A stretch of 22,618 nt of DNA from a virus. Its lineage: Duplodnaviria > Heunggongvirae > Uroviricota > Caudoviricetes. The notes beneath the pieces are model-generated. The model saw nothing but the letters and a program-made list of their open reading frames with translations. It searched no databases and was not told where the DNA came from. The stretch lies in the IMG/VR virus record IMGVR_UViG_2700989162_000004, positions 1-22,618 of that record; one strand, 5' to 3'. Position 1 is the stretch's first letter; every line of letters starts with the position of its first letter. Shown here piece after piece: positions 10,492 to 19,017 of this stretch. The position numbers were made by a program, and so were the translations under genes.

Positions 10492-10567
10492 TGGTGCTGG
10501 TTAACGGACTTGAACCGCTACCCATTCGCTTACAAGGCGACTGCTCTACCATTGGAGCTAAACCAGC
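10492..10567 (-). tRNA. tRNA-Thr (anticodon UGU), CCA encoded
   Basis: Minus strand GCTGGTT...GCTC-CAATGGTA-GAGC...loop CTTGTAA...GGTTCAAGTCC...AACCAGC-A-CCA; 7-bp acceptor stem, T-loop signature, anticodon loop CUUGUAA; one A-G mismatch in the anticodon stem. Confidence 0.7.
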
Positions 10568-10572
10568 ATGTT

Positions 10573-10647
10573 TGGCGGGACAGCGTGGACTCGAACCACG
10601 ATAAGAAGGTTAACAGCCTTCCGTAATGACCTTTATACGACTGACCC
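10573..10647 (-). tRNA. tRNA-Asn (anticodon GUU), CCA encoded
   Basis: Minus strand GGGTCAG...anticodon arm GAAGG-CTGTTAA-CCTTC...T-arm CGTGG-TTCGAGT-CCACG...CTGTCCC-G-CCA; one T-T mismatch in the acceptor stem and a weak D-stem. Confidence 0.65.
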
Positions 10648-16409: not shown

Positions 16410-16706
16410 TCAGAATTGCATATCAATTTGCTTAAAATCCTCGGTGGCGGCCGGGGATTTTTTCTTTGTGATTTCATCAAGCGCATACTTAAAAGCCCTG
16501 CTAATCGGACTGATGTCTGATGCCATTCCGAAAGCACACAAGACCGAAGCAATAAATCTCCAGTCCGTTCTGCTTATCTTCGATTCATGACAGCCAATCA
16601 TCTTTGCCAGACCGCGCTGGGTAAGCGTTGACAGGTTGATGAGTAAATCAGTTTCAGCGCGATCAATTTCTCGCTGTGTTGGCTTGCTGTAGCTTGCTTG
16701 TGCCAT
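16410..16706 (-). CDS. cII: CII-like transcriptional activator (P22 c1 position)
   Basis: 98-aa ORF; helix-turn-helix region ...[18 protein letters not shown]... and KKSPAATE...QIDMQF C-terminus resembling lambda CII from memory. Confidence 0.8.
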
Positions 16707-16774
16707 TTGTTAATTTTCCTATATTGATATTGAGTTATAGCGGCACACCCAATGGATTTGCCGCTGATGTTTGC

Positions 16775-16814
16775 TCACCCGGTTAGAGGTGAAAGGCCAG
16801 AACTGTTAAAGAGC
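16775..16814 (-). promoter_or_regulatory. nutR: boxA plus boxB hairpin
   Basis: Minus strand boxA TGCTCTTTAACA (16804-16814) followed by a hairpin with CTAACC in the loop (16775-16792); lies between cro and cII-like. Confidence 0.6.
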
Positions 16815-16821
16815 AATTTGC

Positions 16822-17007
16822 TTATGCCGCTTGGCGGTAAGCACTTTCTTGATACTTCAGGGCGCCAGCTGTAACGATTTCCAATCGATAGGCGTCTTTC
16901 TCTGGGATAACTTCTTTCCACTGAGAGACTGCTGCATCGCTAATGCCTAGTGCTTTAGCAACAGCACGCTGGGTTCCGAAGTGGTCAATAACATCTTTTT
17001 TGTACAT
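16822..17007 (-). CDS. cro: Cro repressor, P22-type
   Basis: 61-aa ORF MYKKDVIDHFGTQRAVAKALGISDAAVSQWKE..., essentially P22 Cro as I recall it. Confidence 0.9.
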   Translation of the reverse strand: MYKKDVIDHFGTQRAVAKALGISDAAVSQWKEVIPEKDAYRLEIVTAGALKYQESAYRQAA

Positions 17008-17087
17008 AGACTCGCTCCGAAATTAAAGAACACTTAAATTATCCACCAAAGGAATCTTAAGTCAAGTTTATTTAAGATGTCTTAACT
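17008..17087. promoter_or_regulatory. Divergent OR operator / pR-pRM region
   Basis: 80-bp gap between divergent cro and c2; holds TTAAGA..TCTTAA-type inverted repeats, e.g. ATTTAAGATGTCTTAACT at about 17063-17080. Confidence 0.65.
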
Positions 17088-17738
17088 ATGAATACACAAC
17101 TGATGGGTGAGCGTATTCGCGCTCGCAGAAAAGAACTCAAGATTAGGCAGGCTGCCCTTGGCAAGATGGTTGGCGTGTCTAATGTTGCTATTTCCCAATG
17201 GGAGCGATCTGAAACTGAGCCCAATGGCGAAAACCTATTGGCCTTAGCCAAGGCTTTGCAGTGCTCCCCTGATTACCTGTTGAAAGGAGAGGATAGTCTT
17301 TCAAACATTGCCTATCACAGCAGGCATGATCCAAGAGGTTCGTATCCTCTAATTAGTTGGGTAAGCGCAGGATGTTGGATGGAAGCTGTAGAGCCATATC
17401 ATAGGCGTGCAATAGATAACTGGTACGACACAACGGTAGATTGTTCTGAAGACTCTTTTTGGCTCGACGTTAAAGGCGATTCAATGACTGCCCCGGCAGG
17501 ACTGAGTATTCCTGAGGGGATGATTATTCTCGTCGACCCAGAAGTCGAACCACGTAATGGAAAGTTGGTAGTCGCCAAACTTGAAGGAGAAAACGAGGCG
17601 ACATTCAAAAAGTTAGTTATTGATGCCGGTAGAAAATTCCTGAAACCACTCAATCCACAATACCCAATGATTGAAATCAATGGGAACTGTAAAATCATTG
17701 GCGTTGTCGTTGATGCCAAGCTAGCAAACCTTCCTTAA
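17088..17738 (+). CDS. c2: Prophage repressor, P22 c2-type (LexA-like self-cleaving)
   Basis: 216-aa ORF MNTQLMGERIRARRKELKIRQAALGKMVGVSNVAISQWERSE..., near-identical to P22 C2 as I recall it; HTH N-domain and S24 peptidase-like C-domain. Confidence 0.95.
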   Translation: MNTQLMGERIRARRKELKIRQAALGKMVGVSNVAISQWERSETEPNGENLLALAKALQCSPDYLLKGEDSLSNIAYHSRHDPRGSYPLISWVSAGCWMEAVEPYHRRAIDNWYDTTVDCSEDSFWLDVKGDSMTAPAGLSIPEGMIILVDPEVEPRNGKLVVAKLEGENEATFKKLVIDAGRKFLKPLNPQYPMIEINGNCKIIGVVVDAKLANLP

Positions 17739-17758
17739 GGGGCTTTCGCCCCTTTTTT
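17738..17758 (+). terminator. Intrinsic terminator immediately after c2
   Basis: AGGGGC-TTTC-GCCCCT followed by TTTTTTAT. Confidence 0.65.
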
Positions 17759-17827
17759 ATTTCCCGTTAAAAATCAAAGACAAACTAAATTCACGCCCAT
17801 AAAATTAAGTTTTCTTCAAAAATGCAC

Positions 17828-17856
17828 TTGACCAATAAATTAAGAAGTCTTAAATT
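17828..17856 (+). promoter_or_regulatory. pL-like promoter overlapping an OL operator
   Basis: TTGACC-(17 nt)-TAAATT; the spacer and -10 contain the operator-like inverted repeat AATTAAGAAGTCTTAAATT. Confidence 0.55.
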
Positions 17857-17902
17857 TAAGCCATCAGCAGGACGCTGGAAGCCAAACGGAACAGATTGGC
17901 AG

Positions 17903-17942
17903 GCTCTTTAACATCGACGGACTCTCAACCTAACCGTTGAGA
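17903..17942 (+). promoter_or_regulatory. nutL: boxA plus boxB hairpin
   Basis: boxA GCTCTTTAACA (17903-17913), then hairpin TCTCAAC-CTAACC-GTTGAGA (17923-17942); loop sequence shared with the nutR hairpin. Confidence 0.65.
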
Positions 17943-18052
17943 CCAGAACTTGAGTGGTTTTGGGGATGGCGCGAATTGCAGCTGCAAGACAGCGATCGAG
18001 AAGATAAGCACCTCGACGCGTCATGCGCCAAAGCCACTTAAAGGAGACCATC

Positions 18053-18358
18053 ATGGTAACCATTGTCTGGAAAGAATCCAAAGGTACGGCAAAAAGCCGC
18101 TACAAAGCTCGCAGAGCAGAACTTATTGCCGAGCGACGCAGTAATGAAGCACTGGCGCGAAAAATTGCGCTAAAGCTCTCTGGTTGCGTCAGAGCAGACA
18201 AAGCAGCATCGCTAGGATGCCTTTGCTGCAAGAAGAAAGAAGAAGTCGTTCGAAAAAATAGAAGTATTTATTACAAAGATTCAAACCCATTAGGAAACAA
18301 AATACATGCAGTCCAAAAAATAAAATTGTACAGTAAACTACCGTACGGTGCTTATTGA
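18053..18358 (+). CDS. N: Antiterminator N, phage-21-type arginine-rich motif
   Basis: From the internal Met: MVTIVWKESKGTAKSRYKARRAELIAERR...; GTAKSRYKARRAELIAERR matches the phage 21 N arginine-rich motif as I recall it; AGGAG Shine-Dalgarno; the ORF-track start at 18023 is probably too far upstream; C-terminal half AT-rich. Confidence 0.75.
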   Translation: MVTIVWKESKGTAKSRYKARRAELIAERRSNEALARKIALKLSGCVRADKAASLGCLCCKKKEEVVRKNRSIYYKDSNPLGNKIHAVQKIKLYSKLPYGAY

Positions 18359-18360
18359 GT

Positions 18361-18699
18361 ATGCTTATGGTGAAAAAGACTATTTATGTTAATCCTGACC
18401 GCGGACAAAACAGAAAAGTATCTGATAGAGGTCTTACATCTCGAGACAGGAGGAGAATAGCGAGATGGGAAAAAAGGATAGCATATGCATTAAAAAACGG
18501 TGTAACACCTGGATTTAATGCTATAGATGATGGCCCTGAATATAAGATTAATGAAGACCCAATGGACAAAGTTGACAAAGCATTAGCAACACCATTTCCT
18601 CGCGATGTCGAAAAAATTGAAGATGAAAAATATGAGGATGTAATGCACAGAGTTGTTAATCACGCTCACCAACGAAATCCAAATAAAAAATGGTCATAG
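18361..18699 (+). CDS. Hypothetical protein after N, AT-rich
   Basis: ORF overlaps or abuts the N stop (the track uses TTG at 18355; first ATG is 18361); basic N-terminus, acidic C-terminus; followed directly by an intrinsic terminator. Confidence 0.5.
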   Translation: MLMVKKTIYVNPDRGQNRKVSDRGLTSRDRRRIARWEKRIAYALKNGVTPGFNAIDDGPEYKINEDPMDKVDKALATPFPRDVEKIEDEKYEDVMHRVVNHAHQRNPNKKWS

Positions 18700-18719
18700 C
18701 CCACTTCGGTGGGTTTTTT
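18700..18719 (+). terminator. Intrinsic terminator (tL1-like)
   Basis: CCCACC-GAAG-GGTGGG type hairpin (cccacttcggtggg) followed by TTTTTT. Confidence 0.7.
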
Positions 18720-18832
18720 ATTGTCTGAACAAACCTAATTTACTACCGCAAGCCACGCAGTGAAATGGGTGTGACTTGTGTTGGTCGCCAGAAAATGAAA
18801 TTAGGCAGCAAACCACTTATTTGAGGTGATAT

Positions 18833-18919
18833 ATGGAAGAAGAATTTGAAGAGTTCGAAGAGCATCCTCAGGATGTGATGGAACAATACCAGGACTATCC
18901 GTATGACTACGACTATTGA
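18833..18919 (+). CDS. Candidate 28-aa highly acidic peptide
   Basis: ATG preceded by GAGGTG at a 7-nt spacing; MEEEFEEFEEHPQDVMEQYQDYPYDYDY; bracketed by intrinsic terminators. Confidence 0.35.
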   Translation: MEEEFEEFEEHPQDVMEQYQDYPYDYDY

Positions 18920-18991
18920 TAAAAATCAATGGTGTGGACAATACGAACGACGGCAATGATTTCCAGAGAACTTGGTAAACAGAACAACAAG

Positions 18992-19017
18992 GCTGCCTAA
19001 TGGCAGCTTTTATTTTT
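18992..19017 (+). terminator. Intrinsic terminator
   Basis: GCTGCC-TAAT-GGCAGC followed by TTTTATTTTT. Confidence 0.65.

Follow-up and report, generated by a model that had tools for sequence, protein, structure and literature searches.

Background

Can a phage locus that encodes a P22-like repressor and Cro beside a phage 21-like N protein be called a mosaic, or do these parts already belong together elsewhere? The question is posed by positions 16775-18358 of a 22,618-nucleotide stretch of Caudoviricetes DNA (IMG/VR record IMGVR_UViG_2700989162_000004; the whole stretch is referred to here as the window). The initial annotation described the region as P22-type c2 and cro combined with a phage 21-type N, with two nut sites sharing a boxB loop, and took this as modular exchange between the immunity and antitermination specificity modules. 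We find that the region is almost certainly imm21, the cassette for immunity and early antitermination native to coliphage 21, carried by a P22/HK620-like phage or prophage of E. coli. Among lambdoid immunity regions, imm21 is a classical one. This stretch of the window is therefore already known and ordinary, and not a new mosaic.

Results

Gene content of the region

Every sequence feature that the initial annotation listed for 16775-18358 was found where it had been placed, and the gene order reads cII-nutR-cro-OR-cI-OL/PL-nutL-N. The features are as follows.

16774..16793, minus strand: nutR boxB hairpin UUCACCU[CUAACC]GGGUGAG, by folding; 'stem_loop nutR' at the equivalent of 16775-16792 in the phage 21 record
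16804..16814, minus strand: boxA of nutR, GCTCTTTAACA, exact match; 'boxA-R' in the phage 21 record
16822..17007, minus strand: cro (61 aa); 61/61 to phage 21 Cro and 60/61 to P22 Cro; Pfam P22_Cro, E = 5.7e-28
17008..17087, no strand assigned: OR operators with divergent PR/PRM; three operators are annotated in the phage 21 record
17065-17060 (-35, TTGACT) and 17043-17038 (-10, GATAAT), minus strand: PR, by promoter scan
17088..17738, plus strand: cI, a c2-type repressor (216 aa); Pfam HTH_3 plus Peptidase_S24
17737..17754, plus strand: intrinsic terminator 3' of cI, GGGGCTTTCGCCCC followed by a T run, by terminator scan; a terminator is annotated there in the phage 21 record
17774..17863, plus strand: OL1-3 and PL, annotated in OL657228.1 and identical to phage 21
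17828-17833 (-35, TTGACC) and 17851-17856 (-10, TAAATT), plus strand: PL, with its start at about 17863, by promoter scan
17903..17913, plus strand: boxA of nutL, GCTCTTTAACA, exact match; 'boxA-L' in the phage 21 record
17923..17942, plus strand: nutL boxB hairpin UCUCAAC[CUAACC]GUUGAGA, by folding; 'stem_loop nutL' in the phage 21 record
17950..18041, plus strand: long hairpin in the N leader; its 3' arm adjoins the N Shine-Dalgarno sequence and buries an upstream in-frame ATG at 18023
18053..18358, plus strand: N antiterminator (101 aa); likely start ATG 18053, preceded by AAGGAG at 18041-18046

Relationship to phage 21 and to P22

DNA alignment of 16600-18198 with the phage 21 record OL657228.1 gave three base mismatches, and the alignment runs through 16600-18275 without any indel. 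That record annotates nutL, nutR, boxA-L/R, OL1-3, OR and pL at the corresponding positions. Nucleotide identity is 98.8% over 1576 bp to phage 21, to lambda imm21 and to DE3, the prophage of BL21(DE3), all of which carry the same genes in the same order; it reaches 99.5-99.6% over 1701 bp (16700-18400) to mEp235 and Kapi1. The repressor, Cro and operators of phage 21 are all matched here. The cI product is identical (216/216) to the cI reading frame of phage 21 and mEp235, and the OR region is identical to phage 21 at 80/80 positions and differs from P22 at 5 positions of 80. The module is common: λimm21, DE3, mEp235 and Kapi1 carry it, and among 5426 complete E. coli genomes 346 have it.

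The likeness to P22 that the initial annotation saw is genuine, since the repressor is 93.5% identical (202/216) to P22 c2, compared with 34% to lambda cI, and Cro is 98.4% identical to P22 cro. This follows from phage 21 itself, whose repressor and Cro belong to the P22 type. P22 immC shares with the window a homologous core, boxA-cro-OR-cI-OL-PL-boxA, within which c2, cro and the operators are of P22 type without P22 being the closest match. By blastn, this homology extends at 83.5% nucleotide identity from boxA of nutR (16804) to boxA of nutL, ending at 17917, so that on both sides it stops between boxA and boxB. Beyond those limits, the features that define the gene 24/nut specificity of P22 are not matched: the P22 nutL boxB is GCGCUGACAAAGCGC, whereas the boxB elements of the window are CUAACC-loop hairpins, and P22 gp24 is about 34% identical to the N protein encoded here and has another arginine-rich motif. 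The P22 c1 protein is unrelated in sequence (21%) to cII of the window.

An abrupt end of homology of this kind is what would be seen if a P22-type immC carrying c2 and cro had recently been joined, in this genome, to the N and boxB of phage 21, and the P22/HK620-like virion genes of the window, like the closeness of cI and Cro to their P22 counterparts, would suit such an event. The closer relative, however, is phage 21 throughout: cI and Cro are 100% identical to its proteins, and the cI-cro-operator DNA shows 3 differences in about 1.6 kb, compared with just 83.5% identity to P22. Furthermore, phage 21 itself, an isolate of the 1950s, has the block contiguous with N and the nut sites, so the junctions are ancient features of that phage and did not arise in this genome. 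A recent P22 by 21 recombination is refuted by this unbroken near-identity to OL657228.1, and we regard this origin of the region as extremely unlikely.

With the region read as imm21, the resemblance to P22 is a property of phage 21 itself, in that the immunity cores of the two phages are homologous and their boxB elements and N arginine-rich motifs are not. The module boundary between boxA and boxB is likewise real but old. P22 and phage 21 probably share immunity specificity; an explicit statement of this was looked for in the papers searched and not found. Related combinations are seen elsewhere among lambdoid phages. N7, CUS-3 and Gally combine a nearly identical repressor (210/216) with yet another arginine-rich motif and boxB, each of a third type, and in PA28 a differently annotated repressor and Cro stand beside the arginine-rich motif of phage 21 and an identical nutL boxB. 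Modular exchange is thus a fair description at the level of phage 21, P22 and other phages, but no such joining took place in the window; the individual likenesses on which the mosaic was based hold, and their combination is phage 21's own region. We advise against calling this window a mosaic, and the region can now be annotated confidently as imm21 with N21 specificity, nutL and nutR.

The N protein and the nut sites

The initial annotation had assigned N to phage 21 by its arginine-rich motif, and alignment bears this out. The phage 21-type motif (ESKGTAKSRYKARRAELIAERR) is matched, residues 11-29 being GTAKSRYKARRAELIAERR, and residues 8-29 are identical (22/22) to the phage 21 N peptide of PDB 1NYB chain A. 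Identity to phage 21 N is complete over residues 1-55. From about residue 56, in the last 45 or so residues, N is a different but homologous allele. Overall identity is 77.6% to phage 21 N, compared with 34% to P22 gp24 and 26% to lambda N. The allele matches mEp235 N at 99/101 positions and is the same one found in mEpX1 and Kapi1; all three are plaque-forming phages that also carry nun. Its C-terminal part retains IYY...QKIKL, which is common to phage 21 and lambda N, and little else; the C-terminus of phage 21 N itself resembles that of lambda N. The corresponding C-terminal part of lambda N contacts RNA polymerase. Since the last 45 residues of the allele are only loosely like those of phage 21 or lambda N, full phage 21-like activity is assumed here. 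The Pfam N_peptide model scored 18.1 bits, below the family cut-off of 27.9, and a Pfam search of the Nun protein encoded 3' of N gave no family match; both proteins are therefore identified by direct comparison, through their identity with phage 21, PDB 1NYB and HK022.

The two nut sites have the layout expected of their neighbors, with nutL between PL and N and nutR between cro and cII. The boxA sequence GCTCTTTAACA, described in the initial annotation as close to consensus, occurs exactly twice in the 22.6 kb, once in each nut site, and is separated from boxB by 9 or 10 nt at both. The proposed boxB hairpins, with unlike stems and a common CUAACC loop, both fold with 7 pairs, two of those in nutR being G.U. 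Both nut sites are identical to their phage 21 counterparts over the 56-58 bases compared, and nutL boxB is identical in phage 21, mEp235, mEpX1 and PA28. The hexamer CTAACC occurs 7 times on both strands of the window, and only in nutL and nutR is it closed by a stem of at least 5 pairs (7 in each). In shuffled sequence such stem-loops averaged 0.09, and two were reached in 2 of 300 shuffles. The isolated nutL hairpin folds at -7.4 kcal/mol (z = -4.5). The energy of the nutR hairpin is unexceptional, with z = -1.7 in a short fragment that clips the stem and -0.1 in a 51-nt context, although its 6-7 bp stem is present in both the MFE and the centroid of the 51-nt fold. Recognition of the boxB loop by N would fit two unlike stems that carry one common loop. 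The CUAACC hexaloop is the boxB loop of phage 21 in the 1NYB complex (PMC12550061).

The cassette shares its logic and layout with lambda N/nut, in which boxA, a spacer and a boxB hairpin accompany an arginine-rich N whose message is the PL transcript. That shared gene order, and a boxA common to all three phages, might be taken to mean that N and nut have the specificity of lambda or P22 and that the likeness to phage 21 is superficial. Lambda nevertheless has another arginine-rich motif and another boxB, with a 5-nt loop compared with the 6-nt CUAACC found here. The boxB sequences of lambda (GCCCUGAAAAAGGGC) and P22 (GCGCUGACAAAGCGC) were looked for and are absent, the loops being CUAACC, and N is distant from both P22 gp24 and lambda N by the identities given above. 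Lambda or P22 specificity is refuted by these comparisons and has a negligible likelihood, and the N/nut specificity is predicted to be that of phage 21. As a discovery this carries little weight, as phage 21 N and boxB are a textbook RNA-peptide recognition pair with a solved structure.

Proposed working of the cassette

Established lambdoid biology, together with the sequence identity to phage 21, suggests how the region would work. The cI repressor, bound to OL and OR, would keep the divergent early promoters PL and PR off, and Cro would do the reverse on the same operators. Upon derepression, the PL and PR transcripts would each contain a nut site made up of boxA (GCUCUUUAACA), a 9-10 nt spacer and a boxB with the CUAACC hexaloop. 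N would be made from the PL transcript, and its arginine-rich N-terminal helix (ESKGTAKSRYKARRAELIAERR) would bind boxB while boxA recruits NusB/NusE. N, NusA and NusG would then convert RNA polymerase to a termination-resistant form, which would be expected to continue past the terminators that lie downstream, into cII-O-P in one direction and into the recombination genes in the other.

The N leader

Two candidate starts of N, at 18023 and 18053, share one frame. The initial annotation had reported that the ORF track disagreed with the displayed DNA by 1 nt around 18001-18060. This could not be reproduced: the region aligns with phage 21 without an indel and both starts are in frame, which excludes a frameshift or sequence error there, and the remark concerns the displayed track and not the DNA.

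A 210-nt fold of the N leader has an energy of -71.6 kcal/mol (z = -4.0), and 0 of 200 shuffles were as good. An Rfam scan of the whole window at gathering thresholds returned two tRNAs only and matched neither the nut sites nor the leader to a curated family. The lambda N leader contains an RNase III and translation-control site. With that leader as a model, the long hairpin at 17950..18041 may be an RNase III or translation-control site.

Departures from phage 21 and the nun module

The likeness to phage 21 DNA fades from 18199 and is gone at 18275, within the 3' end of N. On the other side of the region, cII is 89.8% identical to phage 21 cII, and the C-termini of the two proteins are unlike. 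The real junctions with respect to phage 21 are within the N 3' end (about 18199-18275) and, on the opposite side, within cII. On the N side, the only structural departure is the allele in the 3' third of N together with an HK022-type nun module, so that nun follows N in the window and ral follows N in phage 21. The features of this module are as follows.

18241..18716, plus strand: HK022-type nun module, 96.8% nucleotide identity to HK022
18306-18311 (-35) and 18329-18334 (-10), plus strand: nun promoter inside the N frame, hexamers identical to those of the annotated HK022 nun promoter
18361-18699, plus strand: nun; Nun is 111/112 to HK022/O276 Nun
18698-18715, plus strand: terminator at the end of the nun module, by terminator scan

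Certain of these departures could be read as erosion, in which case the region would be a decaying prophage remnant whose N/nut system no longer works. Past residue 56 or so, N differs from its phage 21 and lambda counterparts; the window also holds a stray 3' end of a 21/lambda-type N (18728-18816), and about 80 bp are deleted from within ral. Yet the N reading frame is intact and 98% identical to mEp235 N, its C-terminal part keeps the IYY...QKIKL motif, and the allele recurs in mEpX1 and Kapi1, which, like mEp235, are on record as phage genomes whose E. coli hosts are named. No change is seen in the operators, the promoters or either nut site, and the window contains full-length structural and replication ORFs. 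We consider decay very unlikely and retain the reading as an imm21 cassette with an intact N.

The nun module takes in the last 39 codons of N, and nun lies directly 3' of N in mEp235, mEpX1 and Kapi1 as well. HK022, in contrast, is without N and uses put RNA, and the DNA 5' of its nun is a start-less fossil of this same N C-terminus (EVVRKNRSIYCKDSNPLGNKIHAVQKIKLYSKLPYGAYW), where the window has the 3' end of a live N. It is conceivable, at somewhat short of even chances, that the locus represents the ancestral HK022 nun locus, a live N-nun tandem that would combine 21-specific antitermination with constitutive Nun arrest of lambda-type rivals. The sequence relationships are observed; the evolutionary direction, the expression of Nun from the prophage and the blindness of Nun to the phage 21 boxB are what we infer from them. 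If the proposal is true, Nun would not see the CUAACC boxB sites of the phage that encodes it. Any novelty lies in this evolutionary reading alone, because the GenBank and RefSeq entries of mEp235, mEpX1 and PA28 already annotate the tandem.

The phages that share the module differ from the window elsewhere. The remainder of the mEp235 genome is unlike, covering just 38% of the window, and Kapi1 is likewise unlike the window outside the shared module. With mEpX1, the stretch in common is nutL-N-nun, over which the two were compared, the repressor lying outside it. The virion genes of the window are P22/HK620-like.

Identity of the immunity region

The ORF list and the sequence place a standard lambdoid early-control layout in this region, in an orientation opposite to lambda map order.

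Features of the early-control region and the adjoining nun gene
16410-16706 (-): cII (ORF; Pfam Phage_CII)
16774-16793 (-): nutR boxB hairpin UUCACCU[CUAACC]GGGUGAG (sequence, ViennaRNA)
16804-16814 (-): boxA of nutR, GCTCTTTAACA (exact match)
16822-17007 (-): cro (ORF; Pfam P22_Cro)
-10 at 17043, -35 at 17065 (-): PR (promoter scan)
17088-17738 (+): LexA-like repressor (cI), 216 aa (ORF; Pfam HTH_3 and Peptidase_S24)
-35 at 17828, -10 at 17851 (+): PL (promoter scan)
17903-17913 (+): boxA of nutL, GCTCTTTAACA (exact match)
17923-17942 (+): nutL boxB hairpin UCUCAAC[CUAACC]GUUGAGA (sequence, ViennaRNA)
18053 or 18023 to 18358 (+): N-like ORF (ORF list)
18361-18699 (+): nun, HK022-type transcription-arrest gene directly after N (111/112 aa identical to HK022/O276 Nun)
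18698-18715 (+): nun terminator (terminator scan)

Megablast of the region against deposited phage genomes returned mEp235 (99.6% identity) and Kapi1 (99.5%), each over 1701 bp, followed over the first 1576 bp by phage 21 (OL657228.1), lambda imm21 and DE3 at 98.8% and lambda h434 imm21 at 98.7%. Compared position by position, 16600-18198 differs from phage 21 at only three sites. The phage 21 reading frames for cI (216/216) and Cro (61/61) are identical to those of the window, as are all of the nutL, nutR, OR and OL/PL stretches compared. In the phage 21 record, boxA-L/R, stem-loops for nutL and nutR, OL1-3, the OR operators and a pL start are annotated at exactly matching positions. Judged by its sequence, the region is the imm21 cassette. 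The initial annotation had proposed a mosaic in which P22-type c2/cro was joined to a phage-21-type N, a headline that is incompatible with three differences from phage 21 over this span. A 1-nt disagreement between ORF track and sequence, reported for 18001-18060, was irreproducible, and the alignment to phage 21 is free of indels across 16600-18275.

The 1.7-kb module was present at a coverage of at least 80% in 346 of 5426 complete E. coli genomes, with 90 records at an identity of at least 99%, and the whole window is an HK620/P22-like mosaic phage. The region is a system already fully known, which the initial annotation described correctly in parts and mislabelled in its headline.

In OL657228.1, cI is annotated from an internal Met (1967-2539, 190 aa); the frame that opens at the upstream ATG is uninterrupted over 216 aa and has the length of P22 c2. 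At 1823-1888 of the same record, the operator beside cro is labelled 'OR3' and 'OR2' is used twice, an order that looks inverted relative to the lambda convention. Opposite the 3' end of cII, on the antisense strand (16434-16461, +), is a strong terminator-like hairpin with a trailing T run, where lambda has the terminator of its oop antisense RNA.

Relation to P22 and modular exchange

The repressor and Cro do resemble those of P22, as had been noted (93.5% and 98.4% identity). In DNA sequence, the window shares 83.5% identity with P22 and is essentially the same as phage 21, and a new P22/21 joining in this genome was rejected on these values. The P22-like character of the repressor and Cro is, on this comparison, native to phage 21; a remark in the GenBank record of P22 likens its cro to that of phage 21. 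The block of P22 homology (16804-17917) runs from the nutR boxA to just beyond the nutL boxA and ends before each boxB. Since it breaks between boxA and boxB, the immunity core and boxA are common to phage 21 and P22, which differ in boxB and N.

Phages N7, CUS-3 and Gally carry nearly the same repressor (210/216). Their N has an arginine-rich motif of a third type, DDNARNRRRARRQAQREQ, and their boxB, CCCGC-CGAAAU-GCGGG, is likewise of a third type; the central part of this N, LARKIALKLSGCVRADKAASLG, is shared with phage 21, which places the exchange points at the boxA/boxB border and just past the arginine-rich motif. In PA28, the arginine-rich motif is that of phage 21 and the nutL boxB is identical, beside a repressor and Cro annotated as another type (933W-like Cro). 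mEpX1 matches the window in nutL and N, in a comparison covering the nutL-N stretch, with the repressor outside it. From these comparisons, immunity and antitermination specificity as separately exchangeable modules is a sound idea. Such separate exchange has long been known in lambdoid phages, and is said to have been described when the N/nut regions of 21 and P22 were first sequenced in the 1980s. The suggestion of module exchange therefore holds in general, supported by N7, CUS-3, Gally and PA28, but not as an event visible in the window.

nut sites and N leader

Other elements of the initial annotation were borne out. The N arginine-rich motif, GTAKSRYKARRAELIAERR, occupies N residues 11-29, and the 22.6-kb window holds exactly two copies of the boxA 11-mer, one at each nut site; at both, the hairpin follows downstream after a spacer of 9 or 10 bases. 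Both boxB hairpins, with their shared loop and different stems, were recovered by ViennaRNA, with z = -4.5 against shuffles for nutL and only a modest advantage for nutR. Among seven CTAACC hexamers on both strands, the two closed by at least five pairs are those of nutL and nutR (seven pairs each); shuffled sequence yielded a mean of 0.09 such hairpins. The boxB stems, mostly different around an identical loop, fit a loop-centred recognition by N.

The mechanical N call opens at ATG 18023, in frame with ATG 18053; the latter follows AAGGAG (18041-18046) and serves as the N start in the curated phage 21 record. A long and very stable hairpin (~17950-18041, +) separates nutL from the ribosome-binding site of N (z = -4.0 for the 210-nt fold), with its 3' arm adjoining the Shine-Dalgarno sequence and ATG 18023 buried within it. 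The lambda N leader forms an RNase III-sensitive structure, and the hairpin may similarly have a role in processing or in translational control.

Established lambda, 21 and P22 biology, combined with the sequence identities, predicts that cI would keep PL and PR off and that derepression would place boxA and boxB on each early transcript. The arginine-rich helix of N would then bind boxB and, with NusA, NusB, NusE and NusG, render RNA polymerase resistant to downstream terminators.

Departure from phage 21 within N

Similarity to phage 21 weakens from 18199 onwards and is lost at 18275, within N, whose last ~45 residues (…CLCCKKKEEVVRKNRSIYYKDSNPLGNKIHAVQKIKLYSKLPYGAY) diverge from the homologous 21/lambda C-terminus; overall, the window N is 98% identical to that of mEp235. 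DNA identity to HK022 is 96.8% over 18241-18716, and both hexamers of the nun promoter, as annotated in phage O276, recur unchanged at 18306-18311 and 18329-18334, within the N reading frame. HK022 has Nun without N, whereas the window phage has a phage 21-type N together with Nun. In the O276/HK022 DNA upstream of nun, one frame of 797-920 (compared with window 18241-18360) reads EVVRKNRSIYCKDSNPLGNKIHAVQKIKLYSKLPYGAYW, a start-less copy of the window N C-terminus. This upstream DNA suggests, as a fossil of the N C-terminus, that the N-less HK022 locus derived from an N-nun tandem. The tandem is already annotated in the mEp235, mEpX1 and PA28 records and is known at that level.

Homology to phage 21 resumes 3' of nun and its terminator, starting with a leftover 3' end from an N of the 21/lambda type (…YYRKPRSEMGVTCVGRQKMKLGSKPLI*; 18728-18816, +), ~96% identical in nucleotides to that of phage 21. 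This arrangement looks like the outcome of an insertion into N, or a recombination within it, of a nun module bringing its own N 3' end. Beyond the leftover end, ral (restriction alleviation; ~18907-19000, +) appears disrupted, as ~80 bp of phage 21 (OL657228.1, 3287-3366) are missing internally and the ORF of this region, MTTTIDKNQWCGQYERRQ*, ends early. Adjacent phage-borne tRNA-Thr (TGT) and tRNA-Asn (GTT) genes are located at 10492-10647 (-).
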